Assembly: GCA_965217895.1 (NCBI GenBank)
Contig: CBDCJV010000002.1
Coordinates: forward strand, 416,001 to 480,000
Source of the DNA: Waterburya sp.
GTDB taxonomy: Bacteria > Cyanobacteriota > Cyanobacteriia > Cyanobacteriales > Xenococcaceae
DNA length: 64,000 bases
Direction: 5' to 3'
The translations under genes and the position numbers were made by a program. The notes under the pieces were generated by a model. It was not told where the DNA came from. It ran no database searches and worked only from the letters and a program-made list of their open reading frames with translations. Positions within the stretch are counted from its first letter, which is position 1. Each line of letters begins with the position of its first letter. Positions 25,851 to 64,000 of this stretch are shown here, piece after piece.

Positions 25851-27185
25851 CTAGTGAACCGCTTTGTGAAGATTGTCTTTTTGCCACTGTAAACCAATTA
25901 GCATGGCGGTAAACAGCATATAGCCAGGTTCTTCCATTTGCGTAAAAATTAGACCAACAGCAAAAACAACTAACATAAAAAACTTTGATAATTCGTTGGA
26001 ACAGAGATTATGCCAGACGATAAAAGCTAAATACAAATATGAACCCAGTCCTACCAATCCCAAATCTCCCCAAATACCAGCCCAGCTAAAAAAAGGATGA
26101 TATAAAGTAGATTCCAAAGCAATCCAATTTTGATAATAGGCGTTCCAAGCATCTGTGGTTGCAGGGTGGGCTGTAGCGTGTAAAGGAACAAATATAATCG
26201 AGTAATCTTTGAGAAACCAGCCTGCTAGCCTACCAAAAGTATGACCTGGACCAAGACCAAAAAACCAGTTTAAGACAGATTTATAGTAAGAAATGGCAAT
26301 TCTAAAGGGTGCAGTTTTGATTTCTCTAGCTGCTCCACCAGGGCCCCATTCACTAAACTTATCCATTCCATTTTTAAACGCACTAAATGCCTCTACATTT
26401 TCTACACACCAAGAGAAAATAATTAGGAGAATAATTAAGGCGAATAAATAGCTTAAAGTTTTTCGCAGATCTTTTAAATTTATAAAAGTTAAAATAATAA
26501 AAGCTAGTCCACAACAGATGAGTATTTGTTTGGAGTCAGAAATTATTAACTGAACAAAAGCAACTCCCAACCAAGTCAATCGAAACCAAAGAGGCGCTTT
26601 TTTGTAAAAAAACAAATAATATAAGCCAAATTTTATCGAAACAGATGTAGAAACATAGTTACCGGCTCCTGATACAAAAAAAACTCCCTGGGCACCATCG
26701 GTTCCATCAAAACCGTCTGCATAAAGATAGCCAGAATCAATTAATGGTTTTTGAATTAAAGCTAACACCATATTAATTGAAGCAGATACAAACAGAAATC
26801 GTTGAAAATATTCAATTTTGGCTAACGATAAAGGTATAGAGACTATTGCCAAAAGCAGCATAAAAGGCTCTGCAAGTAAAATATAATCTACAACTACATT
26901 AATGACACCAGCCTCATTTACCAATCCACTAATAATAACTACTATCAAAAAAATAAATAGACCGACGACGAGCTTTTGAGAAATAATAATATGCTTGGGA
27001 ATTTTAACTTTTGTATGAGTTAAAGCAATAAACAAAGTAAATGGAACAGTAATAAAGTGAAGAAAATTTATTACTGAGGGAAACCCTATTGCTGCCAGCA
27101 GACGGGGATAGAAAGCAGTGGCAAAAGATAATAAAATAAGCGTTGATATTGCCAGAGAGCTTTTCTGTTTTTTAGAAGTAAGCAT
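25851..27185 (-). CDS. Multi-TM polysaccharide polymerase/ligase-like protein (Wzy-like)
   Basis: About 10-11 hydrophobic segments and a late loop with FGLGPG; last gene of a glycosyltransferase run. Confidence 0.55.
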   Translation of the reverse strand: MLTSKKQKSSLAISTLILLSFATAFYPRLLAAIGFPSVINFLHFITVPFTLFIALTHTKVKIPKHIIISQKLVVGLFIFLIVVIISGLVNEAGVINVVVDYILLAEPFMLLLAIVSIPLSLAKIEYFQRFLFVSASINMVLALIQKPLIDSGYLYADGFDGTDGAQGVFFVSGAGNYVSTSVSIKFGLYYLFFYKKAPLWFRLTWLGVAFVQLIISDSKQILICCGLAFIILTFINLKDLRKTLSYLFALIILLIIFSWCVENVEAFSAFKNGMDKFSEWGPGGAAREIKTAPFRIAISYYKSVLNWFFGLGPGHTFGRLAGWFLKDYSIIFVPLHATAHPATTDAWNAYYQNWIALESTLYHPFFSWAGIWGDLGLVGLGSYLYLAFIVWHNLCSNELSKFFMLVVFAVGLIFTQMEEPGYMLFTAMLIGLQWQKDNLHKAVH

Positions 27186-27209
27186 AATACATTTTTAAGA
27201 TTATTTTAT

Positions 27210-28139
27210 TCATAATCTCTGCATATAAAAAGAATAACCACTCGGTTCAAAGTGTTGATATTTACAAATAGAATTATAAGCTTCAATTATAAGGGTTGAT
27301 TTTTTCATTAAATAATAAATTGGCATTTCTACGGTAAATGCTGTGTTGAATCGCAGGAAATTTTCCAAATAATATTGCTCATTCCAAAATCTTTTTTCAT
27401 TTACATACCAGTCCAAAGGATAATGGTAGGGAGAGCAAATATCATGTATATGTACGTAAACTCCTCGACCTATATTGGGATATATTTCTTCAAATAAATA
27501 TTCTACGTCGCTGCCAAATTTATAAACGTGGCTAGAATCAACAAATAATAAATCTGATTCTTTGAGATTAGAAAATAAACTTAAAGATACATCTTGTAGA
27601 CCTATAGGCATCGCTTCTAAATCGATCCCTTCTATTATTCTATTTTGAAAATCAAAGCGATTATAAGGATCTATCGAAACAAAGTTAGTTTTAATTCCAG
27701 TTGCTTTGTAGTTATCTTCCAAAGCAGCTAAGGAGATACTAGTAGAGACTCCTTGTCCTACTTCAACCAGGGACTTTGGTTGAATCTCGCGCAAGAAGCA
27801 GTATAAAAAGATAGCGTCAAGTCCTCTAAAATAGTAGTTGATTTCTTGATATCCATATTTGCTGGCAGATTCAAAAAATTCACCTCCCCACCTTTTTAAT
27901 AGCTGCACCATCTTTTGTTCAGCGCGTTCAAAGTTGAAATTAATTTGGTGACAAGACCGCGGTTTGTCTTGATAGTTTTTGGCAATTTCTTTTGTATTGG
28001 GAATTGGTTCATAGAAATGATCGCCTAATACATGAAATCCCAAACTTTCTAGAGATGTAAAAAATTTGCGACTAAGATAACGTTGAATGGCATTTTTTTC
28101 GTTTAAAGCTTTGTATATTTTTTCTTTTGAAAGGTTCAT
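27210..28139 (-). CDS. Class I SAM methyltransferase (Methyltransf_24-like)
   Basis: VEVGQGVST, LFVDSSH, HIHDI and WNEQYYL motifs. Confidence 0.8.
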   Translation of the reverse strand: MNLSKEKIYKALNEKNAIQRYLSRKFFTSLESLGFHVLGDHFYEPIPNTKEIAKNYQDKPRSCHQINFNFERAEQKMVQLLKRWGGEFFESASKYGYQEINYYFRGLDAIFLYCFLREIQPKSLVEVGQGVSTSISLAALEDNYKATGIKTNFVSIDPYNRFDFQNRIIEGIDLEAMPIGLQDVSLSLFSNLKESDLLFVDSSHVYKFGSDVEYLFEEIYPNIGRGVYVHIHDICSPYHYPLDWYVNEKRFWNEQYYLENFLRFNTAFTVEMPIYYLMKKSTLIIEAYNSICKYQHFEPSGYSFYMQRL

Positions 28140-28234
28140 AATTAAATTTTCTCAAAACAACTTTTGAACAAATTTTTTGTTTGTAAATACAGTTAAAAGC
28201 TATGAAACTCAAGCTAAAATGAAACTTATATGGT

Positions 28235-30160
28235 TTACTTTTTACTCTGATGAGTTGGTGAACGATAAAGCTCCATAGTGAACAACTCAGGAGAAGCCAT
28301 TAATTCTTGTTTTTGACCATTGTGAATTTCAAGTGTCTGTAGTCGTCTAGCTTTGCCTAATGCCCAAGCATATTGTACATATGAGGCCGATAAAGAAGAA
28401 TTTTTGGTAATAAAATAAGGTACGGTTGGTTGATATTCATCAGAACCAAAGTGATCGCGGAAAAAACCACCTAGAATTTCGGTTTGTCCTTGATTTTCAG
28501 TAATAACATGAATTGCAGGTGCTTCGGTTTTCATGCCTAACACCCATAATTTTGCACCATTGTTGATCCCATAAGTAACTTGAGGGTCTGATTGTCCTGG
28601 AGTAAAAGGATTATTTTCGGGATTCCATTGTCGCAGCCAAGCAGAACCTTTACCCTTTAATTGCACTTCACCGAGCCATTCATCAACATAAATCTTTCCT
28701 GACCAATCATCAGTTGTGCTAATTTTACCACGAACTATGCTTTCTGAATACTTCACATATACTAAGCGATTGGTCGCTACTTCTATGCCATTAGATTGAC
28801 GAGGCCAAGTAGATAACTTTAAGCTTTCAATTTCGAGTGAATCTTTAGTTTTACCTGTTAAACGCAACATAGCTCGATCGCCAAAGCGATCGAGCATAAA
28901 ATCAGGCACGATGATATTTCCATCGGCATTTTTGTGAGCTATAATTCGCTTTACGGTTGCCGGGACTTCGATGGTATCGGCAATTTTATAGGTGACGTTA
29001 CCTGGAAAAAAGATCGTTTTAGCACCCGAATTCATGGCATTTTGTATTGCCTGAGTATCGTCTTCTTGGGAACTATCAGGAATCAGCCAATTTGTAGCTG
29101 GTTCTAAATAGGGTGCAGGAGGCTGTTCGATTGTTAATTTTAGATGTCCCTGTTGGCTTGGAGGTACAACTTTAGAAAAACTACTCCATTGCTCATCTAT
29201 TTGCTGGCGATCGCTCAATTTACCTTTTTCTTTGAGGGCAGCAGCATAATTACCATCGGTTTGGATTTGGCGTAAATAATAAGGACTATCTGCTTCAATT
29301 GCGGCTATGCCAGGAGGCATATCTGACAGACCATTCAAACGGGCATTAATCAAAATTAAATGAGCCAGGGGATCGGAATTGCTGTGGATGGCAGGGACTC
29401 TATTTTCGCTGGTCAGACCTTCAATAGAAACGGGCTGATTGTTTTCTAATCCAACTATATTTTGTTGTTTCAAACTGATGTTATAAAAGACAGCATTAGA
29501 AGGTTCGCTAGGAGTTTTAATACCAGTATCAAAGCCTTCTACTGTTAGGTTGGCGATCGTACCTGGTCCAAATTCTGTTTCTGATAAATCTAGCCCTATA
29601 GTGCCAGCCAGATCTTCAGATTTGATAACAACGTTGTCGATCGCTCCATTATTATGAGTACTGTATTGGATTCCAATTGCCTTGGTGTTTCCTTTGCCAG
29701 TATCAACAGTTAGATCTCTTATATAAACACCAAATGTCTGGTTGTTGTTGTACATACTGCGTAGTACAGGTTTAGGAGCTTGTGAAAATGCCATACTTGC
29801 GTCTTTTAAACGAATAATTGTTTTGTTTTTAGCTGCTCCTTGAATTGTTTTTAATCGACCTATTTGAATTGTATCGCTGACCAAATAAGTTCCTTGAGGA
29901 AAATAAACTACCTGATAATCTCGACTGGTAGAATCGATCGCTTTTTGCAGGGCAAGAGTATCATCAGTGATCCCGTCACCTTTTGCTCCAAAATCTTTGA
30001 CATTTATCAAATCGCTACTGGCGGGAAATTCTATTTCACTATTTGCTAAAGCTGGTTGAATTGTCTGCATAATTTTGATCCAAGCAAACTTAGCCAGAAA
30101 AATTATCAATATACTTAATAAAAACCAGGCTATTATTTTTTTCGATTTGGCTAAAGACAT
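28235..30160 (-). CDS. Membrane-anchored beta-helix glycanase (pectate-lyase-3/GH55-like)
   Basis: NVKDFGAKGDGITDDTLALQKAI..VYFPQGTY and a second DDTQAIQNAM..IFFPG repeat; N-terminal TM. Confidence 0.75.
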   Translation of the reverse strand: MSLAKSKKIIAWFLLSILIIFLAKFAWIKIMQTIQPALANSEIEFPASSDLINVKDFGAKGDGITDDTLALQKAIDSTSRDYQVVYFPQGTYLVSDTIQIGRLKTIQGAAKNKTIIRLKDASMAFSQAPKPVLRSMYNNNQTFGVYIRDLTVDTGKGNTKAIGIQYSTHNNGAIDNVVIKSEDLAGTIGLDLSETEFGPGTIANLTVEGFDTGIKTPSEPSNAVFYNISLKQQNIVGLENNQPVSIEGLTSENRVPAIHSNSDPLAHLILINARLNGLSDMPPGIAAIEADSPYYLRQIQTDGNYAAALKEKGKLSDRQQIDEQWSSFSKVVPPSQQGHLKLTIEQPPAPYLEPATNWLIPDSSQEDDTQAIQNAMNSGAKTIFFPGNVTYKIADTIEVPATVKRIIAHKNADGNIIVPDFMLDRFGDRAMLRLTGKTKDSLEIESLKLSTWPRQSNGIEVATNRLVYVKYSESIVRGKISTTDDWSGKIYVDEWLGEVQLKGKGSAWLRQWNPENNPFTPGQSDPQVTYGINNGAKLWVLGMKTEAPAIHVITENQGQTEILGGFFRDHFGSDEYQPTVPYFITKNSSLSASYVQYAWALGKARRLQTLEIHNGQKQELMASPELFTMELYRSPTHQSKK

Positions 30161-30171
30161 TAATTACCTCC

Positions 30172-31269
30172 TTAAACACCAAACATATATTTAGCAATTA
30201 ATTTTTGTCTGTTTAACTGAGCTACAATCCACCAGCTAAAGGCAAAAGTCAGCCCAGAATAAACTAGCATTGATGCAATCGAAACTTGTTCTGTCAAGTT
30301 TGGTAAGACTTGAGCAATAATTATTTCAATAAAACTTTTAACTAAAGGATGGATTAAATAAATACCAAAAGAACAAGCTCCTAAATTGATTATTAAGACA
30401 TCTTCTTTAATTTTTCCTGATATGGCTATAGCAAATAATAACAGAGAATAAGCCACGATAATTTCTATTAACGCTTCAGAAAAAAAGTTTTTAGCAATAA
30501 CGTTTGCCACCATAAAAACTAGAATGAACAAAATAATTGTCGTTGTTTTATTAATAATCCGATTGGATACGTTAGCAAGCCAGTAATTTATACACATTGC
30601 TACTAATAAATATGGCAAGCATCTTAAAATCCAGGCTAATTCTACCAAAATAAATCTGGCAACTGCATAATTTGCTTTGTGAGCAGAAAATAGAGCTAAA
30701 ATTTCTGGGAAGGCAATATCAGAACCTAAAATAAATGAATTATTGCTAACCAGCATTAAATGATATAGTACGATGCTCGCTATCGATAAAACAACTAACC
30801 ATTTGATATTTATATTTTTAGACTTCAGATATTTTCCTAAAAACAAGACACAATAACCTGTAAATAATAAAGGAATAAAATATAGATGATATGAAATACC
30901 TCCAAAAAAAATAATTGCCAAAGGATCTTGTAAAAGACTTTTAATAGTTTCGGTTTGATTGGTTGCCGAAAAAATAACTATTTTAGAAATCAAGTAAAGT
31001 AGACTCCAGACTGTATAAGGTATTAATATACGTTCAATTCTAGATAACCAAAATTGCTGAGAAATATTTATCTTTGGTTTGCAAGTTGTAAAATAAAAAG
31101 ATGTTGCTAAAAAAAAAGGCACAGCAAAGTAAAAAAAATGTCTAAATTCTGCTGCTAATGGCTCTACGGGAATTCCCCAAGTTTCATCTCCAGAATGAAC
31201 TAAGATTACCGCGTAAGAAGCTATACCTCGACATAAATCAATTCCTAATAGCCTTCGTTTTGTTTTCAT
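30172..31269 (-). CDS. Acyltransferase-3 (OafA-like) membrane O-acyltransferase
   Basis: GIDLCRGIA..VILVH, AVPFF, RILIPY and SFGIYLIH motifs. Confidence 0.85.
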   Translation of the reverse strand: MKTKRRLLGIDLCRGIASYAVILVHSGDETWGIPVEPLAAEFRHFFYFAVPFFLATSFYFTTCKPKINISQQFWLSRIERILIPYTVWSLLYLISKIVIFSATNQTETIKSLLQDPLAIIFFGGISYHLYFIPLLFTGYCVLFLGKYLKSKNINIKWLVVLSIASIVLYHLMLVSNNSFILGSDIAFPEILALFSAHKANYAVARFILVELAWILRCLPYLLVAMCINYWLANVSNRIINKTTTIILFILVFMVANVIAKNFFSEALIEIIVAYSLLLFAIAISGKIKEDVLIINLGACSFGIYLIHPLVKSFIEIIIAQVLPNLTEQVSIASMLVYSGLTFAFSWWIVAQLNRQKLIAKYMFGV

Positions 31270-31280
31270 AAATAAAATTA

Positions 31281-32405: not shown

Positions 32406-32407
32406 TT

Positions 32408-37441: not shown

Positions 37442-38009
37442 TAATTTTCTTAATAAGGCGATCGCAAAGATCGTTAACTTTGATTGAGAAAAGCAGAATT
37501 AATAATTCTCAAATGAACATAGATTTAGCAATAAATGCTTATTTTTTTCAACAGTGGAGAAATTTTAAACTCTATTTTAATGTCCTTAAACATTAAAATA
37601 GGGAAAAAAGAATATAGATTTCTTAGATGTGCGTATTTTTGTTATTTAGATTTGATAAGCTTATTGACATTGGTAACTGAGTTCTGTATTATCCTTATAA
37701 TAATTGATTTTTTTAGCTTAAAATCTAAAAAAATGCGATTAAAAACATTTAGAGATTTGAGAAATCCTCAGAAGAGAAAATTGGCTTAACTGTTATTGGC
37801 GATCGCCTTGCTTTTTTATTAAGTTGATATCACTCTCAAATGAACTAAAAAGCAGAATGCGATTGAGCGACACTTCTTTTTAAATAAAAAAACCCAATCT
37901 CAAACTATCTTTAACACGATTTATTTCTTTAAACCGTCTTGAAATTATTTTTAGACAGCTTTTTATTTGGAGAATACATTTAAATCGAATTAAATTACAT
38001 CTATATAAA

Positions 38010-54211: not shown

Positions 54212-55579
54212 ATGTTTAAAAATCAACAAAGTTATAAGTTTAGCTTTTTCTTGATACCTTTTGCTTTGATTTTGTTGTATTTGGGCTGGAAAAAATGGCT
54301 AGTAACTGTTCCCAAACCACTACCCGAACAAACTGCTTTGGCGATAAAAAGCAGTCTCAATGGAGGTTCTTATTACGAAATATCTACCTCTGCGGCCAAA
54401 AAAGAAAGCTATTTATCGGCAGATTACCGAATTTGGATTCCCGATGGAGTTAAAAAAATTCGAGGTCTGATCGTCAAACAGCATGGATGCGGTGATGATG
54501 CTGCTGCTACGGGACTAAATCATGCTAACGATCTTCAATGGCAAGCCTTGGCATTGAAACATCAGTTTGCACTTATGGGTACTAGACTGCCGACCGATTA
54601 TCCTACGTGTACGGACAAAGCTATTGCTAACCGAGCTGCTGAAGGTTCTTTTTTAAAAGCGATTAGCATATTAGCACAAAAAAGCGATCGCCAGGAGCTA
54701 AACACAGTGCCTTGGGTAATGTGGGGACATTCTGGTGGAGCAGATTGGGGAACTCAAATGCTCAGACACTACCCCGAACGAACTATTGCTGTAATTAATG
54801 TGCGGTGTGGGGGAATTTCATTAACCTCAGGAAATTCAGAAATACTAAACCTAGATTCAAATTCACAATCAACTTCCCCTTTACTCAAAGTCCCAGTTTT
54901 CTGGTTTATAGGAGATAAAGACCCCTTTGAAAAAGAGTGTAAAAAATTACCCCAGAAAATTTTTTACAAGTTTAGAAAAGCAAACGCACTATGGGCATTG
55001 GCAGTACAGCCCAATGCTGCTCATGAGACTGGGGACAGCAGACTATTGGCTATTCCTTATGTAGATAAGATTATAAGCGCGCGAGTTACAAAAGACAGTA
55101 ACCAACTGCTCCCAATCGATAAAACTCAAGAATGGTTTGGCGATCCTACTACTCATGAAATTGCTCCCATCAACAAGTTTGAGGGCAATCCGCTAAAAGC
55201 AGCTTGGCTTCCTAACGAAGAAACGGCTCGTAAATGGCAAGAATACGTGACTACTGGCAAAATTTCTCCAACTAGCAAACCTAATGTACCAACTAATGTA
55301 ACTGTTACTAGTATTAGTGCTACAGAAAAGGTAATTAAGTGGAATTTTACTCCCGATTTAGAAAATGGCCTGCCATCTTTTCGTATCTATCGCCATAATT
55401 CGCTCATTCAAACTCTCGAAGGACAAAAGCATAATTTTGGCGATGCTCCAGAACCTGCAAATGTTACCTTAGAATTTCGAGATCCAAAAGCTGCTCCAGA
55501 TTCTACTTATACTGTGGCAGCTTTTAATCAATTGGGAGAAAGCGTTTCTGCACCAGCAACATACACCAAAAAACCATAA
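54212..55579 (+). CDS. Membrane-anchored/exported alpha/beta hydrolase with FN3-like C-terminus
   Basis: N-terminal TM; WGHSGG nucleophile elbow, GDKD, AAHE; C-terminal PTNVTV...YTVAAFNQLGES. Confidence 0.7.
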   Translation: MFKNQQSYKFSFFLIPFALILLYLGWKKWLVTVPKPLPEQTALAIKSSLNGGSYYEISTSAAKKESYLSADYRIWIPDGVKKIRGLIVKQHGCGDDAAATGLNHANDLQWQALALKHQFALMGTRLPTDYPTCTDKAIANRAAEGSFLKAISILAQKSDRQELNTVPWVMWGHSGGADWGTQMLRHYPERTIAVINVRCGGISLTSGNSEILNLDSNSQSTSPLLKVPVFWFIGDKDPFEKECKKLPQKIFYKFRKANALWALAVQPNAAHETGDSRLLAIPYVDKIISARVTKDSNQLLPIDKTQEWFGDPTTHEIAPINKFEGNPLKAAWLPNEETARKWQEYVTTGKISPTSKPNVPTNVTVTSISATEKVIKWNFTPDLENGLPSFRIYRHNSLIQTLEGQKHNFGDAPEPANVTLEFRDPKAAPDSTYTVAAFNQLGESVSAPATYTKKP

Positions 55580-55667
55580 TTATTGGAGGTTGATGTTTGC
55601 TATAAAATATCTTTATCAAGCCAGATTTATTGAACGCGATCAACAAAAAAATTATTTTATTTAATCA

Positions 55668-57470
55668 ATGCAATATATACGTAGATTTTTATATTTAAAT
55701 AAAGGCAAAGAAAAAAGCCTTTTCTTGATGACTTTGCTATTTTTGTTGATTTCATCCTTGGAAATGCTGGGAACTGGATTGATTGGACCATTTATTAATT
55801 TAGCTCTCAATCCAAATTCAATTCAACAAAGTAAATGGCTAAGTTCAGTCTTTGACTGGTTTAATTTTGCTACTAATAGTCAATTTTTGCTCTTGTTTGG
55901 AGCTTTTGTAATAGTTGTCTTTTATTTAAAATCATATTTAAGCTTTAATGCCCAAAAATCTGTTTTTAAATTTGGATTTAATCAACAAGGAGAGCTATCT
56001 TCTAAATTAATGCGTGCTTATTTGGCAGCTCCTTATACCTTTCACCTGAATAGAAACAGTGCCGATTTAATCCAAAATATTGTTAACGAAACAGAACGAT
56101 TTAGCAATGGGTTTATGATGCCATTGCTAACTTGTTTTTCTAATATTATAGTTATTGTCGCCCTGGTTTCGTTACTAATAGCAACAGATATAATGGCTGT
56201 AGTAATTATTGCAGGAATTGCCATAATTTCTGTGGCATTATTTTATAGTTTTAAAGATAAAATTGGTCGTTGGGGAGAAGAAGGTTCTGAATCTCGCACC
56301 GAAATGATTCGTCTTATTAATCACAGTTTAGGAGGATTGAAAGAAACTAAAGTTATCGGTTGCGAATCTTATTTTGAAAAGAAAATGCAGGTTCAAATTA
56401 CAAAATTTGCCACAAGTATTAGTTCTGCATTGATTTTTTCTAATTTACCTCGTTATGTGGTGGAAGCCTTTTTAATTACTTTTTTAATTGGTTTTACTTT
56501 ATTATTTATCACAATTAATCGCGGAAATACCCAAAATTTAAGCTCAGTATTGGGTATTTTTGCTCTGGCTTCGATTCGTCTACTGCCAGCAGCAGGAAAT
56601 TTAATTTCTGCTATCAACGGTCTTAAATATCATGCTTATACGGTCGATAAACTTTATTTAGATTTACAAGAAGTTAAAACGGTATCTCCACTAAACAATT
56701 TGAAATCTCAATCTAATCAGATTAAAGTCTTAACTAAAAAAAACGGCGATCGCTTGACAATACCTTTTGACGATCGCATTACTTTAGAGAAGATTAGTTA
56801 TACATATCCCAATGCTGATAAAAGTTCTCTTCAAGAAATTTCTTTGGCAATCGAAAAAGGCAAGTCGATTGGTTTAATTGGTAAATCTGGGGCAGGTAAA
56901 ACAACTTTAGTTGATGTAATTCTCGGACTTTTGACACCTCAACAAGGAAACATCAAAGTTGATGGTGTTTCTATATACAATGACATAAGTTCCTGGCGCA
57001 ATTTAATTGGCTATGTTCCCCAATCAATTTTCTTAACAGATGATACTTTAGAAAGAAATATCGCTTTTGGTGTTGATGACGAATCGATCGATTTTGCCAG
57101 ATTAGACAAAGCGATCGCCGCAGCCCAGCTAAACGAACTGGTCGAAAGCCTACCCCAAGGGCTACAAACTATGGTTGGCGAACGCGGTGTGATGATATCT
57201 GGAGGACAACGCCAGCGAGTTGGTATTGCCCGCGCCCTTTATCACGAACGAGAAGTTTTAGTGTTTGATGAAGCGACAGCAGCATTAGATAACGAAACGG
57301 AAAGTCTTGTTACCGAAGCAATCAAATCTTTAAGTGGTAAAAAAACGATGATTATTATTGCTCACCGTTTATCAACGCTGAAGCATTGCGATCGTATTTA
57401 TATGCTCGAACAAGGACAAATTGTTAAGTCGGGTAGCTATCAAAAGATAGTATTGGGAATCCAAAAATAA
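55668..57470 (+). CDS. ABC exporter, fused TMD-NBD (HepA/PglK-like)
   Basis: GKSGAGKT, ISGGQRQR, VFDEAT and IAHRLST motifs; long extracellular loop after TM1. Confidence 0.88.
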   Translation: MQYIRRFLYLNKGKEKSLFLMTLLFLLISSLEMLGTGLIGPFINLALNPNSIQQSKWLSSVFDWFNFATNSQFLLLFGAFVIVVFYLKSYLSFNAQKSVFKFGFNQQGELSSKLMRAYLAAPYTFHLNRNSADLIQNIVNETERFSNGFMMPLLTCFSNIIVIVALVSLLIATDIMAVVIIAGIAIISVALFYSFKDKIGRWGEEGSESRTEMIRLINHSLGGLKETKVIGCESYFEKKMQVQITKFATSISSALIFSNLPRYVVEAFLITFLIGFTLLFITINRGNTQNLSSVLGIFALASIRLLPAAGNLISAINGLKYHAYTVDKLYLDLQEVKTVSPLNNLKSQSNQIKVLTKKNGDRLTIPFDDRITLEKISYTYPNADKSSLQEISLAIEKGKSIGLIGKSGAGKTTLVDVILGLLTPQQGNIKVDGVSIYNDISSWRNLIGYVPQSIFLTDDTLERNIAFGVDDESIDFARLDKAIAAAQLNELVESLPQGLQTMVGERGVMISGGQRQRVGIARALYHEREVLVFDEATAALDNETESLVTEAIKSLSGKKTMIIIAHRLSTLKHCDRIYMLEQGQIVKSGSYQKIVLGIQK

Positions 57471-57485
57471 CCATCATTACTTTAA

Positions 57486-58403
57486 ATGCTTCAAACTCCT
57501 GTAGTTTTAATCATCTTTAATCGACCCAAAAATACTCAAAAAGTATGGGAAATAATTCGTCAAGTAAAACCAGCAAAATTACTGGTAATTGCTGATGGAT
57601 CTCGTGCAGATCGCGCCGACGACATAGAAAAATGTGCTGCCACTCGTGCCGTCATTGACCTAGTTGATTGGGATTGTGAAGTCCTGAAAAATTATTCGGA
57701 TGTTAATTTGGGATGTGGATTGCGAATATCTTCAGGGCTTGATTGGGTGTTTGAACAAGTGGAGTCAGCAATTATTTTGGAAGATGATTGTTTGCCTCAC
57801 CCTGATTTTTTTTCTTTTTGCCAAGAATTGCTGACAAAATACAGAGATGATTTAAGAATCATGCACATTTCAGGTAACTATCTTTTACATAAATATAATA
57901 AGTCTCCACCCAAATACAGTTATTATTTTTCACGCTATCCTCTGATTTGGGGTTGGGCTACATGGCGTAGAGCTTGGCAGCACTATGACTTTAGCATGAG
58001 TTGTTTACCAGAAATTTTAGATGATGGTTGGTTTGATAGTTTTCTAAATAGAAGAGAAAAATATGTTTGGACAAGAAATTTTGTAGGTTGTTACCAACAA
58101 GCTTATACATGGGACTATCAATGGTTTTTTTCCTGCTGGATTCAAAGCGGGCTGGCAATTATGCCTAATGTAAATTTGGTTTCCAATATCGGTTTTGCTG
58201 CTGATGCTACCCATACTCAGGATTTAAAATCACCGTGGGCTAATTTGCCTAGCGAAGCTATGAGTTTTCCTTTAGAACATCCACCTTTTACCATTCGAGA
58301 TGCGGAGGCGGATCGATATCTGCAAAATAATCTCTTCGATTTTAGTAAATTGGAAATATTGAAAACCAAACTACAAAAAATTCTTAACTCTAAAAATATT
58401 TAA
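57486..58403 (+). CDS. GT-A fold glycosyltransferase (GT2-like)
   Basis: IIFNRP, IILEDDC, IWGWATWRRAW and NLVSNIGF motifs. Confidence 0.8.
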   Translation: MLQTPVVLIIFNRPKNTQKVWEIIRQVKPAKLLVIADGSRADRADDIEKCAATRAVIDLVDWDCEVLKNYSDVNLGCGLRISSGLDWVFEQVESAIILEDDCLPHPDFFSFCQELLTKYRDDLRIMHISGNYLLHKYNKSPPKYSYYFSRYPLIWGWATWRRAWQHYDFSMSCLPEILDDGWFDSFLNRREKYVWTRNFVGCYQQAYTWDYQWFFSCWIQSGLAIMPNVNLVSNIGFAADATHTQDLKSPWANLPSEAMSFPLEHPPFTIRDAEADRYLQNNLFDFSKLEILKTKLQKILNSKNI

Positions 58404-58415
58404 ATAATTAGTTTT

Positions 58416-59669
58416 ATGAAAGTCTTACATTTAAGTGCTTTCGATCTGGCTGGTGGGGCTGCACGAGCAGCTTATCGAATTCATCAGGGTATGCTTAATA
58501 TGGGCATCGATTCACAATTGTTAGTTCAACACCAACAAAGTAACGATCGCACCGTTGCCACTGCTGAACCTAAAGTATATGCCAAATTGCGATCGCTGGC
58601 AGATTCTATTCCCATTAATTTTTATCCCCATCGCCAACAAATGTTCTCGCCCCAGTGGTGTCCCGATGCTTTACCTAAAAGCGTCGCTCGATTTGCGCCC
58701 GATATTATCAATTTTAATTGGGTTTGTAACGGTTTTGTCCCCGTAGAAGCTCTATTGAAGTTCAAACAGCCTTTGGTCTGGACGCTACAGGATATGTGGG
58801 CGTTTACAGGAGGATGTCACTACACCCTAGGCTGCGATCGCTATCAAGACTGTTGCGGTAATTGTCCACAACTCCAAAGCGATCGCGATCGCGATTTATC
58901 TCGTTGGGTATGGCAGCGCAAACACAAAGCTTGGCAAAATCTTAACCTTACTATTGTGACTCCTAGTTCTTGGATGGCTAAATGCGCTCGTTCTTCTTCT
59001 TTATTTAGAGAATTGGCGATCGAGATTATTCCCTTTGGCTTGGATATAGCTAAATTTGCTCCCTATGACTCACAACAAGCCAGAAAAGAATTAAATTTAC
59101 CTCAAAAGAAACAGCTAGTTCTTTTTGGTGCTATTGATGCTACAGGAGATACTCGCAAAGGTTCTCACCTGCTTCAGCAAGCTCTAAAACAACTGAGTCA
59201 GTCCTCACGACAAGAACAGATTGAACTGGTTATTTTTGGGGCTTCTCAACCAGAAAAACCGCTAGATTTTGGTTTCCCAGTCCATTACTTAGGACATTTA
59301 GACGATGCTCAGCTTAGGTTAGCTTATTCAGCAGCCGATGTGATGGTAGCCCCTTCTTTACAAGAAGCCTTTGGACAAACCGCCTCCGAGTCTTTGGCTT
59401 GCGGTACTCCTATCGTCGTGTTTGAGCATACTGGGTTGGCAGATATAGTCGATCGCGATCGCAATGGTTATATTGCCGAGTATGGAGATATTGAAGATTT
59501 AGCCAGAGGTATTGCTTGGGTAATTGAAGACAAAGAACGTCATCAACAACTTCGTTACTATGCTCGTAAAAAAGCAGAACAAGAGTATGCCGAATCAGTT
59601 CAAGCATCACGCTACCTGTCTCTTTTTGAGCAGATTGTGGCAAAGCAAAAAGCAACCTCTTTAAGTTAA
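58416..59669 (+). CDS. GT4 glycosyltransferase (WcaC-like)
   Basis: GGAARAAYR, DMWAFTGGCHY and EAFGQTASESLACGTP motifs. Confidence 0.88.
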   Translation: MKVLHLSAFDLAGGAARAAYRIHQGMLNMGIDSQLLVQHQQSNDRTVATAEPKVYAKLRSLADSIPINFYPHRQQMFSPQWCPDALPKSVARFAPDIINFNWVCNGFVPVEALLKFKQPLVWTLQDMWAFTGGCHYTLGCDRYQDCCGNCPQLQSDRDRDLSRWVWQRKHKAWQNLNLTIVTPSSWMAKCARSSSLFRELAIEIIPFGLDIAKFAPYDSQQARKELNLPQKKQLVLFGAIDATGDTRKGSHLLQQALKQLSQSSRQEQIELVIFGASQPEKPLDFGFPVHYLGHLDDAQLRLAYSAADVMVAPSLQEAFGQTASESLACGTPIVVFEHTGLADIVDRDRNGYIAEYGDIEDLARGIAWVIEDKERHQQLRYYARKKAEQEYAESVQASRYLSLFEQIVAKQKATSLS

Positions 59670-59678
59670 GCAGTAAAT

Positions 59679-60926
59679 ATGGAAATACAAACTCTTCAAA
59701 CAAACAAGAGTGATCGTCGATTAATGCTGTTCGATCTTGCTCTGGGTGGTCATCATGGCAACTATATCAGGTATCTAGTTGACTATTGGTGCGAACAAAA
59801 TTTATCTGGAAGTTTGGATATTGTTGTACTACCACAATTTTTAGACGTTCATGGCGACGTAGTAGAAACTATTGCTCAATCTAATCATCCAAAAATCAAA
59901 TTAATCCCTATCACTGAGGTAGAAGTAGAAACTTTAAATTCTCGGAAAACAGGATTGAGTCGAGTTGTTCGCAATTTTCAAGAGTGGGACTTGTATTGTC
60001 GGTATGCCAGTCTATTACAAGCGACTCAAAGTCTAATCATGTACTTAGATACCTGCGAAATCCCTTTGTTTGTGGGTAAATCTTCACCCTGTCCCTTTTC
60101 GGGAATTTACTTTCGACCAACCTTTCACTATCGTTATTTTCAAGGTTATCAGTGGTCTGGGAAAGAGCAACTACAAAATACTAGAGAAAAATTAACCCTC
60201 TCACGAATTTTGCAGCACTCTAAACTTAAAACGCTTTTTTGTTTAGATCCTTTTGCCATTAAACATATCGAGCAGTTTTCTAGTCGCGCAAAAGTTGTTT
60301 ATCTACCCGATCCAGTAGAAATAGATGGTAATGATAATCCTCATGTTGAAAGTATTCAAACAAATTTAGGGATTGAACCTCATAGACAAGTATTTTTGCT
60401 CTTTGGGGCTTTGGACGGGCGTAAGGGCATTTATCAACTATTAGATGCTGTAGCTCTTTTACCCGACGAACTCTGTCAAAAATTATGTTTATTGCTAGTA
60501 GGAGGTACTAATTCTGTCGAACAAAGCCAAATTGAAGCTCAAGTAAAGACTATTTGTCAACATAAACCAGTGCAAATAATTCAACGTTATCAATTTATTC
60601 CTGAAGCAGATGTGACAGCTTATTTTCAACTGGCAGATTTGGTACTTGCTCCTTATCAAAAACACGCAGGCATGAGCGGTATTTTGTTACTTGCTGCTGC
60701 TGCGGGCAAACCCGTCTTAAGTTCTAATTATGGACTAATGGGAGAAATGGTAAGAAGCTATAAACTTGGTTATGCGATCGATTCCACCATATCAAATGAG
60801 ATTGCTAAAGGACTAACTCACTGTTTGTTGTCTTATGATAGCTTAGGCGATCGCGTAAAAATGAAGGAATTTTGTCAACAGCACTCAGTAAAACATTACA
60901 CCCGTCTAATTTTTGATCTTGTTTAA
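59679..60926 (+). CDS. GT4-like glycosyltransferase
   Basis: GGHH, FGALDGRKG and PYQKHAGMSGILLLAAAAGKPV motifs. Confidence 0.82.
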   Translation: MEIQTLQTNKSDRRLMLFDLALGGHHGNYIRYLVDYWCEQNLSGSLDIVVLPQFLDVHGDVVETIAQSNHPKIKLIPITEVEVETLNSRKTGLSRVVRNFQEWDLYCRYASLLQATQSLIMYLDTCEIPLFVGKSSPCPFSGIYFRPTFHYRYFQGYQWSGKEQLQNTREKLTLSRILQHSKLKTLFCLDPFAIKHIEQFSSRAKVVYLPDPVEIDGNDNPHVESIQTNLGIEPHRQVFLLFGALDGRKGIYQLLDAVALLPDELCQKLCLLLVGGTNSVEQSQIEAQVKTICQHKPVQIIQRYQFIPEADVTAYFQLADLVLAPYQKHAGMSGILLLAAAAGKPVLSSNYGLMGEMVRSYKLGYAIDSTISNEIAKGLTHCLLSYDSLGDRVKMKEFCQQHSVKHYTRLIFDLV

Positions 60927-61193
60927 AATCATGAAAGATAAAAAATAATCTTTCTCATAAGACCATTAAGTATTTTATAGTATTATTTTATGTGTCACTT
61001 AATGTAATATGTTTATTAAACTTGGTATTGTGTAAATAGTCCAAACTCTTATTTTTTCTAATTTAAAGTAAATATACTAAAAATTAAAGCCATGTTTAAA
61101 AACTATTAATACGCTAGCTATATTTCGCTCAAATAAAATATATGAACATTTATCAAGCAAAATTTACCCCAACTTATTTTAAGAAATATATTA

Positions 61194-62198
61194 ATGTCTG
61201 AATCCATGCGCCTCGCCTTTATTATGTGTACCGAAGGTGGACAACTAGAGCAAGAATCATTGTTGATGGTTGAAAGTCTGCGCCGCTTTGGCGGCGACTT
61301 AAAAGATACTCCTGTTTACAGCTTTCAAGTCAGAGATAAAAATGATGTCTCTACTCCCACTTTAAAAGCATTAGAATCTTTTAGAGTCGAACATCAAAAA
61401 GTTGTTCTCAATCACAAATATCCCGATTATCCTTTAGCTAATAAGCCCTTACTGTGTGCTTATGCCGAACAAAACATCGATGCAGAAATTTTAGTATTTC
61501 TAGATAGCGATTTGGTTTTTTTCTCTGAACCCAAAGAATTTCTGCTGACTGCTGAATACGATGTTGGCATTCGTCCAGAACACGAAAAAATGATCGGTTC
61601 TGAAGGTAAAAACGATCCTAATGATGAATATTGGCAACATCTTTATCAACTAGCTGGTGTTGGAGATAAAGAAATGTTTGTCACCACTACAGTTGATCGG
61701 CAAAAAATTCGGGCTTTTTGGAATTCGGGAGTAGTTGCTGTTAGAAGAAGTGCTGGTATTTTTACCGCCTGGCGAGAAACTTTTCTCAAACTGCTTGAAG
61801 AAGGTTCGATGATTGATAGTAAAAATTTTTATTATGAACAATCAGCCTTATCAGCAACTATTTGTGCCAAAACAAATAAAATATGGCAATTTTCTCCAAA
61901 CTATAACTATCCAATTCACTCTCACAATCCAATTATCGAATCCCAGAGGATGAAAAACTTTAAAGATATCGTTTGTATTCACGATCATCTCTTTAGAAGC
62001 CGTAAAGAATGGTATCGAGAAAGAACTTGGGTGAAAACTCTCAAAAGATTGAAAAATTTTGATAAAAATTCCTCTGAATATCGATGGCTTTATAAGTATT
62101 TACAAGAACATAATTCGCCACCAAATGTTATGCAAAGCTTATTAGAATTTGTTTTGTTTCTACCAGGTATTCAATGGATACTTCCTTATCAAAGATAA
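61194..62198 (+). CDS. GT-A fold (GT8-like) glycosyltransferase
   Basis: VFLDSD (DxD), FWNSGVV, EQSALS and YNYP motifs. Confidence 0.65.
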   Translation: MSESMRLAFIMCTEGGQLEQESLLMVESLRRFGGDLKDTPVYSFQVRDKNDVSTPTLKALESFRVEHQKVVLNHKYPDYPLANKPLLCAYAEQNIDAEILVFLDSDLVFFSEPKEFLLTAEYDVGIRPEHEKMIGSEGKNDPNDEYWQHLYQLAGVGDKEMFVTTTVDRQKIRAFWNSGVVAVRRSAGIFTAWRETFLKLLEEGSMIDSKNFYYEQSALSATICAKTNKIWQFSPNYNYPIHSHNPIIESQRMKNFKDIVCIHDHLFRSRKEWYRERTWVKTLKRLKNFDKNSSEYRWLYKYLQEHNSPPNVMQSLLEFVLFLPGIQWILPYQR

Positions 62199-62239
62199 CT
62201 AACATGAGGAATTTATAAACTTTGAATAAACCAAAAAAA

Positions 62240-62582: not shown

Positions 62583-62607
62583 AAAAAATTAATTTAAAAA
62601 TATTCAT

Positions 62608-63669
62608 ATGCAAATAGCTTTTATTAGTCGTTATCGTACAGAAATCATGGGTATTGCCATTTTAGGGATTCTTTTATTTCATTCAACGCAAATAAATTTT
62701 GGCAATACATTTCCTTTATTCTTATTTAATTACATTAGAATAATTGGTTATAGTGGTGTAGATATATTTTTTTTCGTGTCTGGATTTGGGTTAGTTTTTG
62801 GATGGTTACAAAGAACAAATGAAGTTTTTAAGTTTTATAAAAAAAGGCTTCTAAGAATTTTGCCTGCTTATTGGACTACTCTATTTTTTTATTTAATTAT
62901 TCATCTTACGTATTTCAAGGATTTTAAGATAAAAGGATTTATTGGAGATCTATTAGGGCTTGGTTTTCTGACTTCGCATAGCTACAATTACTGGTTTATT
63001 CCTTCAATTATTGTATGTTACTTAATATTTCCTTGTATTATTTTTTTACTAAATAGAAATATTATTAAACAAAAGTTTATTAGTAATTTCTGGTATACAT
63101 TGCTTTTTTCAAGTACTTTACCTTTATTTTTGTGTTTGGGTGCAATTCTAACTAATAAATATCAATTACTCATTTTTTTGAGTCGTTTACCCAGTTTTAT
63201 TTTAGGCGTAATAGTTGCCTTTTTATATTACCAAAAAAAATACGAACTAAAATTAAATTTATTGACAATAAATTTAATTTTGATTTTGGGTTTTATTGCT
63301 CTATTTATAATTAATTTTTATGTAAACAATGAACTAAAATGGCACTACGGCTTGTTATGGTATCCATTAATATTTTTGACGTTTCCTTTATGTTTGGTTT
63401 TGGCATTTTTTTGCAGTTACATCGACAAAAATTTTGTTTTATTAAAAAATAGTTTATTTTTTTGTGGTAAATATAGTCTTGAGATTTACTTGATACATAT
63501 GTTAGTTTTTGATTTTTACGACGACTTACATACTTTCATTAGTTCTTTTGATTTGCTAGCGATGTTCAATCAAGGAAACATTTTAGTTTATGAAATTCTT
63601 ATTAGTATCTCATTACTATTATCATTTTTTCTCAAAAAATTTACCAGTTTTCTTAATATACCAATTTAG
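62608..63669 (+). CDS. Acyltransferase-3 membrane O-acyltransferase
   Basis: IMGIAILGILLFH, GVDIFFFVSGFGL, KRLLRILPAY and SLEIYLIH motifs. Confidence 0.88.
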   Translation: MQIAFISRYRTEIMGIAILGILLFHSTQINFGNTFPLFLFNYIRIIGYSGVDIFFFVSGFGLVFGWLQRTNEVFKFYKKRLLRILPAYWTTLFFYLIIHLTYFKDFKIKGFIGDLLGLGFLTSHSYNYWFIPSIIVCYLIFPCIIFLLNRNIIKQKFISNFWYTLLFSSTLPLFLCLGAILTNKYQLLIFLSRLPSFILGVIVAFLYYQKKYELKLNLLTINLILILGFIALFIINFYVNNELKWHYGLLWYPLIFLTFPLCLVLAFFCSYIDKNFVLLKNSLFFCGKYSLEIYLIHMLVFDFYDDLHTFISSFDLLAMFNQGNILVYEILISISLLLSFFLKKFTSFLNIPI

Positions 63670-63680
63670 GAGTTTATTAT

Positions 63681-64000
63681 ATGTCGTTCGAGCTAACGAA
63701 AAATAATCGCATTGCTTGGTTATTACCAGCAATGGGAACTGGGGGAATATCGTTTCAACATATTATTGCCGAATTCGTTCGAGAATTTCCTGAAACAATC
63801 GTCTATACGGGACAATGGCCTGGCTATGCTGCTGGATTTGAAAATAGTTTTCCAGTTCGAGAAGTTGGTGCGACTAAATTTATCGAGTTGGCAAAAACTG
63901 CTCAAGGTTATAATCTAGGATTTTCTTACGCTTCTCCTAGTATTATTGGGCATTTAATTAAATTCAAACCAGACGTTGTTTTTGCTAACGCTTTTACCAT
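63681..64000 (+). CDS. GT4-like glycosyltransferase, 5' part (runs off the window)
   Basis: AGGAG then ATG 63681; open frame MSFELTKNNRIAWLLPAMGTGGISFQH...FKPDVVFANAFT. Confidence 0.75.
   Translation, partial: MSFELTKNNRIAWLLPAMGTGGISFQHIIAEFVREFPETIVYTGQWPGYAAGFENSFPVREVGATKFIELAKTAQGYNLGFSYASPSIIGHLIKFKPDVVFANAFT

Follow-up and report, generated by a model that had tools for sequence, protein, structure and literature searches.

The window analysed here is a stretch of 64,000 nucleotides from the cyanobacterium Waterburya sp. (contig CBDCJV010000002.1, positions 416,001 to 480,000 of the forward strand). Its positions 25851-64000 contain 22 genes (Table 1), in which a short assembly line of nonribosomal peptide synthetase (NRPS) and polyketide synthase (PKS) genes is surrounded by genes for glycan assembly. 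The gene map is based on a mechanical list of open reading frames (ORFs) and on Pfam and NCBIfam profile searches of the window ORFs; the ORFs of other genomes were called by script and named from Pfam, and the evidence throughout is comparative sequence evidence.

An NRPS/PKS cassette in a surface-glycan locus

Six genes, which we refer to as the cassette, encode a synthetase with the domain order adenylation (A), thiolation (T), ketosynthase (KS), acyltransferase (AT), acyl carrier protein (ACP) and aminotransferase (AMT), a cupin, a methyltransferase, a C-A-T module (C, condensation), a C-T-TE module (TE, thioesterase) and a membrane-anchored hydrolase. They form one compact run on the same strand. 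The successive gaps from the wecG gene upstream to the ATP-binding cassette (ABC) exporter gene downstream, taken from the ORF list, are 82, 80, 6, 46, -4 (an overlap), 2 and 88 bp, with 82 bp at the wecG-PKS junction and 88 bp at the hydrolase-ABC junction. The first-pass annotation of this DNA had described three NRPS/PKS genes with a cupin, a methyltransferase and a hydrolase, on one strand with short gaps and one overlap, and all of these are present where it had placed them according to the ORF, Pfam and NCBIfam data. Its count of two A domains and one ketide agrees with the two A domains and the single KS in the whole line. To the left, a divergent arm (25851-34785) holds three family-4 glycosyltransferase (GT4) genes and genes for an Acyl_transf_3 protein, a methyltransferase, a pectate-lyase-like beta-helix protein and a polytopic membrane protein. 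Downstream of the cassette lie a PglK-like ABC exporter, five likely glycosyltransferases (GTs) and one acyltransferase-3 (AT3) gene.

We propose that the cassette is a substituent module of the surface-glycan locus, the product of which would end covalently bound to sugar, and we assign this reading a probability of roughly 0.58. The NRPS/PKS genes, which sit in a slot for variable cassettes, are likely a working part of the glycan locus. The weight of the argument lies on the replacement of this slot in a congener, on a co-inherited block of cassette and glycan genes, on rare genes interleaved with the synthetase genes, and on fusions of a GT2 domain to the synthetase. Three of these lines of evidence, slot replacement, shared inheritance and fusion, support the glycan-substituent interpretation of the first-pass annotation; that the product is transferred onto the glycan is a step that we infer.

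Frame and variable slot in a congener

Two members of the same genus, G101 and G288, contain no match to the AMT region (E≤1e-150) and no match to the hydrolase (E≤1e-10); here and below, G000 is the genome of the window and other G numbers are compared genomes. G101 has two loci (L077-L080; G101:C74 and G101:C8) with the same frame as the window, in the order (Wzc), WecG fused to a c-di-GMP domain (WecG-cdG; 53-59% identical), variable cassette, ABC exporter (52-55%), GTs, 444-aa membrane protein (44-46% in both loci), GT4, AT3 (49-52%), GT4c (60-61%), GT4b (65-66%) and beta-helix protein. The fusion heads both frames at full length, the GT4 orthologues of the left arm are 59-66% identical, the beta-helix proteins found at the same place are 641-642 aa long, and the Methyltransf_24 gene (MT24, 67%) is present in one of the two loci. 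GT4d has weak GT4-family matches only in the G101 frames (23-34%), and no match for GT4e or the 334-aa protein was found there.

The NRPS/PKS set of the window, together with the hydrolase, occupies exactly the slot between the WecG fusion and the ABC gene. In the first G101 locus this slot is taken up by an amino-sugar gene set for nucleotide-sugar amination and N-acylation: two hexapeptide acyltransferases, a GFO/MocA oxidoreductase, two DegT aminotransferases, an epimerase/dehydratase, methyltransferases, a GT2-methyltransferase fusion and a GT4. In the second it holds a 1318-aa CBM6/CBM35/malectin/GSDH protein. Because the ABC gene is also part of these NRPS-free frames, the exporter is to be counted with the glycan frame rather than with the peptide line. 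In the genome of the window a single copy of the frame was found.

Homologous cassettes in other genomes

The AMT region was found in 8 of 61 genomes of the window's family and in 4 of 38 other genomes of the genus. We assessed 13 arrangements of homologous cassettes, counting near-identical pairs once and leaving out a broken copy in G449; outside this tally are 11 AMT hits from genera already sampled (G368, G372, G152, G234, G378, G148, G252, G356, G324, G336 and G340) and G437. GT genes or genes of the undecaprenyl phosphate (Und-P) pathway lie inside the cassette or within 10 kb of it in eight of the 13 arrangements. Two (G260 and G180) have only an AT3 gene in the core, and three (G439, G212 and G005) have no glycan genes; in G212 and G005 the first-module code is of the Pro type and the gene order is different. 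With the tally restricted to Val-type or near-Val (G401b) starters, a choice made after seeing the data, the numbers become 8, 2 and 1 of 11. Each of these 11 has a protein that would handle acyl groups: an anchored esterase-fold protein in seven, AT3 in the core in four, and a PAF-AH-like hydrolase beside the line of G401b. The first-pass annotation had named a usual absence of glycan genes around homologous lines as counting against a glycan role, and the tally runs the other way.

A metagenome-assembled genome (MAG) of Chamaesiphon (L014/L032) carries both the cassette and much of its surroundings. The cassette part comprises the PKS (78% identical over the AMT part present), the methyltransferase (70%), C-A-T (53%), the terminal module (56%, here with an A domain) and the hydrolase (49%). 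The glycan part comprises the ABC exporter (65%), GT4d (70%), GT4e (55%), the 334-aa protein (67%), more GT4 genes and two AT3 genes, followed by housekeeping genes. Orthologues of GT4c (56%) and AT3a (43-56%), which are on the opposite strand in the window, are there on the cassette strand. In these alignments, cassette, ABC and GT genes travel together. GT4d, GT4e and the 334-aa protein also have orthologues beside the cassette in G419 and G457.

A second cluster in the same Chamaesiphon MAG (L030, G401:C123) encodes a GT2 domain fused to the N-terminus of the A-T-KS-AT-ACP-AMT synthetase, with a divergent Bac_transf initiating transferase upstream and a GT4 after the C-A-T-TE gene. The same GT2::synthetase fusion, of about 2560-2670 aa, is found in 12 of the best 120 protein clusters out of 7653 hits (P0102-P0113), one of them labelled Chamaesiphon. 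The nearest solved relatives of the fused GT2 are chondroitin synthase, PglI and similar polysaccharide GT2 enzymes. We know of no described NRPS with such a GT2 fusion, although no search was aimed at this point.

Other arrangements place glycan genes between the synthetase genes. GT8 genes lie between PKS and NRPS genes in four genomes, and in Pseudanabaena (G308 and a MAG) the GT8 gene is located between PKS and cupin. G457 repeats the locus of the window, but with a GT8 gene between PKS and cupin and without the methyltransferase there. G419 has the order WecG-cdG, PKS, GT8, C-A-T, FkbM methyltransferase, C-T-TE, hydrolase and ABC exporter, followed by a second GT8 and many GTs. In G457, G419 and G460 alike, WecG-cdG is directly upstream of the PKS.

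In G290 the line lies inside a complete Wzx/Wzy locus, with the order NTP_transferase and PGM/PMM fusion protein, Bac_transf, UDP-glucose dehydrogenase, PKS, methyltransferase, AT3, three NRPS genes, Wzy_C, Polysacc_synt, GT2, GT4 and WecG; the UDP-glucose dehydrogenase gene overlaps the PKS start by 8 bp. In G306 and G059, which belong to one genus, A-T is a separate gene, AT3 lies between cupin and C-A-T, and the TE gene is followed by Bac_transf, WecG, a Wzc-like gene, a hexapeptide transferase, GT2 and GT4.

The copy left out of the tally, G449:C26 (L089), looks broken: its C-A-T gene is split into pieces of 619 aa and 125 aa with four small ORFs between them, and its PKS gene is cut by the contig end.

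Domains and predicted product of the assembly line

All NRPS and PKS domains score above their Pfam cut-offs, so that the line qualifies as a hybrid of NRPS and type I PKS. The two A domains score 448 and 461 bits against the amino-acid adenylation model TIGR01733; since the first (A1, 448 bits) is above the cut-off of 317, it is an amino-acid adenylation domain and not a fatty-acyl ligase. The KS has its Cys and both His residues (TACSTS, HGTAT, NVGH), and the AT has the motifs GHSIG and HAFH, which we take to be of the malonyl type. The condensation motif of C-A-T, HHIICDG, is canonical, and the T motif GGxS and the TE motifs GLSNGG (Ser) and PGHH (His) are present.

We derived the ten-residue A-domain codes at positions of the GrsA numbering, checked at conserved anchors, and assigned them provisionally with a code table. 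The code of A1 is DAFWLGGTFK, presumably a Val-type code, and it is kept (with F or L at the third position) in 12 of 15 aligned homologous first modules. The code of the second A domain (A2), DISFITLIWK, received no substrate assignment and is highly variable among relatives, in which Val-, Pro-, Thr- and Lys-like codes occur. Among the congeners G000, G457 and G439 the second-module codes are DISFITLIWK, DILFIGFIWK and DFWIIGMVHK, with the first-module code fixed. Judged from the codes, these differences may reflect strain-level diversification of the peptide.

Three other leads were set aside. A 717-bit match of A1 in the Protein Data Bank (PDB) to linear gramicidin synthase combines the scores of two A domains (343 and 373 bits) and is uninformative on specificity. 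Lipoinitiation of the FAAL type was rejected because the A domain is of the amino-acid type, and Pfam finds neither a FAAL nor a starter C domain in the window. A PKS island of the heterocyst-glycolipid type was likewise rejected, since the line contains NRPS modules and an AMT domain.

The PKS is 66% identical to its counterpart in Pseudanabaena G308 and 66% identical, over 2309 aligned positions, to the synthetase of Pseudanabaena lw0831; the AMT regions of other cyanobacterial PKS genes reach 42-54% identity only. The cupin gives a weak PDB match to a putative asparaginyl hydroxylase (E 0.0066) and has orthologues in the cassettes of G308, G402, G457, G306 and G260. Orthologues of the TIGR04325 methyltransferase are found in the cassettes of Chamaesiphon (70%), G290 (52%) and G460 (48%).

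The terminal module has no A domain, and its C motif reads H-C-IVCDG in place of the usual HHxxxDG. These features would suit a decaying remnant, a line that has lost an A domain and the second His of a C domain and makes no product, and a broken relative exists in G449 with its split C-A-T gene. We consider this explanation very improbable. None of the six cassette ORFs is interrupted, and KS, AT, T and TE all retain their motifs. By length and alignment, terminal modules without an A domain recur in G457, G419, G439, G290 and G212; the odd C motif is kept in G401a, G308 and G260, and in G180 and G306 the residue at this place is Ser or Arg; and the terminal module, at 95% identity between G000 and G457, is the best conserved of all proteins of the locus. 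Because of this recurrence and this identity, the missing A domain and the unusual motif do not look like decay as far as the alignments go. The terminal T domain might be loaded in trans by A2, which is a guess.

From what is known of these families, A1 is predicted to load a Val-type amino acid, KS and AT to add one malonate, and the aminotransferase domain to convert the 3-keto group into an amine by transamination at C3. The resulting unit would be 3,4-diamino-5-methylhexanoyl, handed to C-A-T; it is predicted to be a vicinal 3,4-diamine because the starter is an amino acid by TIGR01733 and the Val-type code. Its two free amines would make the substituent cationic. C-A-T would then add a second residue, and the A-less C-T-TE module would complete and off-load the chain, with the cupin predicted to hydroxylate and the methyltransferase to methylate. 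In G457 the GT8 gene stands next to the cupin gene, at the place of the window's methyltransferase gene, which suggests that a hydroxyl installed by the cupin would be capped by either a methyl group or a sugar.

The membrane-anchored hydrolase

The hydrolase matches no Pfam family even at E≤1. In an AF2 model (pLDDT 79.4, pTM 0.80) a single hydrophobic helix at the N-terminus precedes an alpha/beta-hydrolase core, and a beta-sandwich forms the C-terminal part. Foldseek matches the model to esterase D/S-formylglutathione hydrolases, cutinases, PETases, a CE1 feruloyl esterase and PHB depolymerases (probability 1.00, E ~1e-8, TM 0.45-0.61 normalised to the target). The motifs GHSGG and QHGCG, His271 and the Asp residues are invariant in nine homologues, so that model and alignment together give the GxSxG elbow and the conserved His and Asp expected of the esterase D/CE1/cutinase fold.

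Members of the family are rare: of 401 genomes sampled from the phylum 2 have one, and the species-representative collection contains nine loci. Homologues of 38-40% identity are located in SusC/SusD loci of Runella (L009) and Arenibacter (L012), beside genes for GH141-like, beta-helix and sulfatase proteins and a BD-FAE esterase; L010 (a MAG of Alphaproteobacteria), L011 and L013 also hold homologues. The Bacteroidota homologues may, to judge from their gene neighbourhoods, cleave acyl groups of the same type off the glycans of algae or cyanobacteria. The hydrolase data fit an enzyme that acts on an acylated polysaccharide. In Pseudanabaena sp. SR411 (L007) a lone homologue (48%) adjoins a PF00953 (WecA/MraY-type) transferase gene, with no NRPS genes within the 14 kb examined.

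Glycan genes around the cassette

Table 1. Genes of the NRPS/PKS-containing glycan locus; positions are those of the window.
Feature	Position	Strand	Basis
Polytopic membrane protein, 444 aa; candidate Wzy-like polymerase or ligase	25851..27185	-	about 9-10 hydrophobic segments; no Pfam match at E≤1
Methyltransf_24 methyltransferase (MT24), frame gene	27210..28139	-	PF13578, 37.5 bits
Pectate-lyase-like beta-helix protein; likely glycan lyase or epimerase	28235..30160	-	PF12708, E 7.8e-33
Acyltransferase-3 AT3a, membrane O-acyltransferase	30172..31269	-	PF01757, 82.4 bits (cut-off 31)
Three GT4	31281-32405, 32408-33634, 33631-34785	-	PF00534/PF13439
Wzc-like polysaccharide co-polymerase	35294..37441	+	PF02706 and AAA_31
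WecG/TagA (GT26) with C-terminal MshE-type c-di-GMP domain	38010..39215	+	PF03808, E 6.7e-58, 195.6 bits; NF053729
Hybrid NRPS/PKS, A(Val-type)-T-KS-AT(malonyl-type)-ACP-aminotransferase, 2265 aa	39298..46095	+	Pfam, NCBIfam
Cupin_8 (JmjC-like); predicted Fe/2-oxoglutarate hydroxylase	46176..47138	+	PF13621, 38.4 bits
TIGR04325-family methyltransferase	47145..48026	+	TIGR04325, 198 bits (cut-off 80)
NRPS module C-A-T	48073..51345	+	Pfam
Terminal module TubC docking-C-T-TE, without A domain	51342..54209	+	Pfam
Membrane-anchored alpha/beta-hydrolase, 455 aa, C-terminal beta-sandwich	54212..55579	+	no Pfam match; AF2 model, Foldseek
Fused TMD-NBD ABC exporter, nearest PglK/HepA/MsbA models	55668..57470	+	NCBIfam, below cut-offs
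Four likely glycosyltransferases: 305-aa GT-A-like, GT4 (58416-59669), GT4 (59679-60926), 334-aa GT-A/GT8-like	57486..62198	+	Pfam for the GT4 pair; ESM-Atlas leads for the others
Acyltransferase-3 AT3b	62608..63669	+	PF01757, 97.1 bits (cut-off 31)
Start of last GT4 gene, 387 aa	63681..64000	+	58% identity to a Chamaesiphon GT4 scoring PF00534 E 1.5e-37

The flanks described in the first-pass annotation largely hold: the WecG/TagA protein, the ABC exporter and the GTs are confirmed. The protein that it called Wzc has a Wzz domain and a Walker A motif (GEGKST) and scores 107.3 bits against TIGR01007, just under the cut-off of 108.05. Its last 30 residues contain no tyrosine, and since it lacks the C-terminal tyrosine cluster we call it no more than Wzc-like; it does not belong to the bacterial tyrosine kinases (BY-kinases, PCP-2a). 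In the divergent run, the GT4 genes and the acyltransferase were found as described; the name Wzy-like for the 444-aa protein (90% identical to its homologue in G457) is unverified and stands here as a candidate name. No Polysacc_synt or Wzy_C match was found in the window, where the PglK-like ABC exporter and the polytopic membrane protein stand at those places; the G290 cassette has both families.

The earlier statement that no regulator is visible does not hold. WecG belongs to PF03808 and carries an MshE-type domain predicted to bind c-di-GMP, so that a regulatory input is visible; this domain matches NF053729 in two stretches with 83.4 bits (cut-off 38) and has four LGEILV-type repeats. 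WecG-type enzymes act on the product of WecA/TagO, and the domain composition of the fusion points to c-di-GMP control at the second sugar-transfer step.

The ABC exporter resembles PglK (312 bits against an equivalog cut-off of 1000) and the HepA family (280 against 725) without being an equivalog of either. Its sequence is 65% identical to the G419 gene, the same value as for Chamaesiphon. The 305-aa and 334-aa proteins give no Pfam match at E≤1; for both, ESM-Atlas provides leads only, with scores of 0.98-0.99 to clusters of GT2 or nucleotide-diphospho-sugar transferases and of 0.96 to one GT8 cluster. AT3a and AT3b have 9-10 hydrophobic segments each and belong to PF01757, and AT3b is 62% identical to its G419 orthologue. 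The beta-helix protein has a single hydrophobic segment, at residues 9-27.

Proposed mechanism

Our hypothesis is that the line would make a short 3,4-diamino-acyl peptide derived from valine, and that this peptide would become covalently bound to the sugars of the neighbouring glycosyltransferases, giving a peptide-decorated exopolysaccharide or oligosaccharide. The joining could follow either of two routes. In the cytoplasmic route, the acceptor for the chain released by the TE would be a hydroxyl or amine on a sugar of the lipid-linked unit that WecG and the GTs assemble, and the PglK-like ABC exporter would next flip the decorated unit; off-loading onto sugars has precedents in the TE of Pks13 and in PapA-type enzymes. 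In the trans-membrane route, which would be Dlt- or OatA-like, the chain would cross via an acyltransferase-3, the anchored esterase-fold protein or both. The Wzy-like and Wzc-like proteins would polymerise the product, and c-di-GMP would act through the WecG fusion.

We speculate further, and with clearly less than even confidence, that the locus represents a widespread and unrecognised form of cyanobacterial glycan decoration. A miniature NRPS/PKS line would then be the serotype cassette of a c-di-GMP-controlled locus and would graft a cationic valine-derived vicinal-diamino-acyl peptide onto the repeat unit, as a multi-module counterpart of teichoic-acid D-alanylation. The hand-over would take place at the membrane via acyltransferase-3 or an anchored esterase-fold transferase, and the second residue would vary between strains like an antigenic determinant.

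Weighing the glycan reading

Several observations weigh against a substituent module. At least one GT gene within 10 kb is not rare in cyanobacteria, with a rough estimate of 25-40% for any 30-kb flank, and for this reason the tally of 8 of 13 is weak on its own. Several of the lineages share ancestry and are not independent, and the Chamaesiphon data come from a MAG in several contigs. The congener G439 has PKS, C-A-T, C-T-TE and hydrolase genes amid housekeeping genes only, so that the cassette can live outside a glycan locus. G260 carries a cNMP-ABC and HlyD exporter of its own and has no GT nearby, and G180 has no GT nearby either, which suits a secreted peptide. No initiating transferase (PF02397/PF00953), Wzx or Wza is identified by Pfam among the window ORFs of at least 100 aa; seven PF02397 genes are located elsewhere in the genome. 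No domain dedicated to peptide-to-sugar transfer was identified. For the trans-membrane route, the AT3 donors shown so far are acyl-CoA and not carrier-protein thioesters (PMC9558356).

The co-location of the line with glycan genes is nonetheless more than chance. GT8 genes number one in G457 (directly after the PKS), two in G419 (both in the locus) and three in G308 (one in the cassette), with none in the genome of the window. AT3 genes number three to six in G290, G306, G260 and G180, with one inside the NRPS core in each, and four in the genome of the window, two of them in the locus. WecG genes number two each in G290 and G306, one of them within 15 kb of the line, and five in the genome of the window, one of which abuts the PKS. 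Rough estimates of the probability that such a placement arises by chance come to 0.003-0.015 per genome for GT8 and AT3 and to 0.013-0.044 for WecG; they assume an independence violated by shared ancestry. The real argument is that the linkages persist although the proteins have diverged to 50-70% identity, the gene orders are shuffled and the GT families differ.

The linkages also bear on the idea that two unrelated systems meet here, a mobile NRPS/PKS island having landed in a hypervariable polysaccharide locus so that the adjacency is meaningless. The sporadic distribution of the AMT region and of the hydrolase in the genomes counted above would suit such an island, as would the phage-like and transposase genes that flank some copies and the general tendency of polysaccharide loci to be recombination hot spots. 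The association nevertheless recurs with other gene orders and GT families in Pseudanabaena, in Chamaesiphon (twice), in G290, in the genus of G306 and G059, and in three genera of the window's family. GT8 and AT3 genes, which are rare, are found between synthetase genes, GT2::synthetase fusions exist, and the junction gaps on the two sides of the cassette are very short. We regard an unrelated island as quite improbable.

Rather unlikely, in our view, is a self-contained small-molecule cluster. On this reading a short peptide would be secreted and would never become attached to a polymer. It might first be hydroxylated and afterwards methylated or given a sugar by the cluster's GT8, and the anchored hydrolase would mature it extracellularly; the cluster would lie in a glycan locus because regulation or export is shared, or because a lipid-linked sugar unit serves purely as a vehicle, as proposed for carenaemin. 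GT genes in natural-product clusters commonly glycosylate free metabolites, and anchored periplasmic hydrolases mature some NRPS products, as in prodrug activation of the ClbP type. The arrangements in G439, G260 and G180 speak for such a peptide. So does a proposal made for Collimonas that a PKS/NRPS core is joined to a sugar unit of the Wzy pathway and released in diffusible form (PMC8313283). Against it stand the ABC gene, a component of the glycan frame that the G101 loci have even without NRPS genes, and the synthetase-fused GT2, which resembles polysaccharide enzymes and not the GT1 enzymes of natural products. In G290, moreover, the NRPS genes are interspersed with those for Wzx, Wzy, Bac_transf and WecG, and the fold of the hydrolase is that of esterase D/CE1 enzymes and not of a peptidase, with Bacteroidota homologues in polysaccharide-utilisation loci. 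A match to a characterised free metabolite, which the first-pass annotation had pointed to as evidence for a free product, is unsupported: no such name appears among the best 120 protein clusters or in the literature searched.

Cyanobacterial sheaths and exopolysaccharides are often reported to contain peptide or amino-acid moieties of unknown origin. If the cassette supplies such a substituent, it would link nonribosomal peptide synthesis with lipid-linked glycan assembly. A substituent module would also account for a family of orphan clusters, in which over 100 of the best 120 protein clusters are at least 58% identical to the window's synthetase, and would offer a genetic handle on the charge of the exopolysaccharide, adhesion, metal binding and resistance to grazing or phage. 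Genome mining that files such loci as 'orphan toxin-like BGCs' (biosynthetic gene clusters) may then misplace surface-structure genes. The frame-plus-cassette layout provides natural controls, since G457, G419 and G101 have the same frame with different cassettes.

Borders of the locus and other features of the window

Left of position 25851 the window holds housekeeping genes (PhoH, thioredoxin, LysR, LepA and AcrB). On the right, the genome sequence beyond the window places the end of the locus about 840 bp past it, inside the 387-aa GT4 gene. In the congener G288 the synteny on the PhoH side is not kept, PhoH alone being matched within 120 kb of G000, and for this reason no clean insertion site can be defined for the borders of the island. 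Rfam and tRNA scans found no Rfam family and no tRNA in the whole window. Promoter and terminator scans gave counts at the level of shuffled controls (42 versus 47.7 and 21 versus 16.4; 34 versus 33.9 and 7 versus 7.1); the best promoter-like site of these scans, at 37664-37692, lies in the 568-bp gap between the Wzc-like and WecG genes. A search for sequencing runs returned two DNA-type runs from a single study and no RNA run.

Two further observations concern the left part of the window. A 274-aa ORF at 19122-19946 matches only the C-terminal part of a protein-kinase profile (positions 104-252 of 263), and may be a truncated Ser/Thr kinase gene or have a mis-called start. At 9408-11434, about 2 kb contain no ORF of at least 100 aa and no Rfam or tRNA match.

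Comparison with known systems

In the titles and abstracts of the literature searched, we found no NRPS/PKS line described as part of a cyanobacterial polysaccharide locus or in the variable slot of an O-antigen or capsule locus. Peptide decoration of this kind is not described there, and its proposed coupling to the glycan is testable.

The closest described relative is an orphan NRPS/PKS cluster of Pseudanabaena galeata CCNP1313, also present in SR411, lw0831 and BC1403, which the paper treats as a free-metabolite cluster of unknown product, predicting a Val starter and a beta-amino unit (PMC11356792). It shares with the window the gene family and the logic of A-T-KS-AT-ACP-AMT, C-A-T and dock-C-(A)-T-TE. 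Unlike the window, it has a partial N-terminal C domain, an A domain in the last module and a GT8 gene after the PKS, and it lacks a Wzc/WecG/ABC frame.

The combination of KS-AT-ACP with a class-III aminotransferase, followed by a condensation domain that takes the beta-amino-acyl chain, is shared with mycosubtilin/iturin (MycA), microcystin (McyE) and nodularin (NdaF); the beta-amino mechanism of such PKS-aminotransferase modules is established knowledge and is also outlined in the Pseudanabaena paper (PMC11356792). Those lines extend a fatty-acyl or phenyl-derived starter to cyclic lipopeptides or toxins, whereas the starter in the window is an amino acid and the line has two or three modules only. 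With an amino-acid A domain first, a Val-type code and neither a FAAL nor a starter C domain, the line falls outside the iturin/mycosubtilin type.

In the Dlt system (DltA/DltC/DltB/DltD), an adenylation enzyme and a carrier pass a cationic group to a membrane acyltransferase and an anchored esterase-fold protein, which place it on a surface glycopolymer. The likeness is one of working principle only, the locus being no member of the Dlt family, and the donor in the window would be a multi-module NRPS/PKS product. The window contains neither an MBOAT (DltB) nor an SGNH (DltD) protein; its membrane proteins are AT3 and its anchored protein is esterase D/CE1-like, and its DltA matches are generic A-domain matches far under the level of a stand-alone DltA.

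The glycopeptidolipid (GPL) locus of mycobacteria combines NRPS genes with glycosyltransferases, methyltransferases and an Acyl_transf_3 acetyltransferase (Atf1) and makes a surface glycoconjugate. The GPL is a lipopeptide with glycosylation of the GT1 type and export by MmpL; the window has no lipid-loading domain, its GTs are of the GT4, GT26 and GT-A types, and its assembly proteins are Wzc-like and PglK-like.

For carenaemin of Collimonas arenae Cal35, both a PKS/NRPS core and a Wzy-dependent oligosaccharide pathway are required, and attachment of the peptide to a lipid-linked sugar before flipping is given as the authors' hypothesis (PMC8313283). There, two separate loci of a betaproteobacterium are involved and the synthetases are unrelated, whereas the genes of the window are interleaved in one locus.

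In overall layout the window resembles O-antigen and capsule loci, which have a conserved assembly and export frame and a swappable cassette for sugars and substituents, as seen when the window is set beside the G101 loci. As far as we know, the variable regions of such loci hold nucleotide-sugar and transferase genes; in the window, the corresponding place is taken by the NRPS/PKS line.

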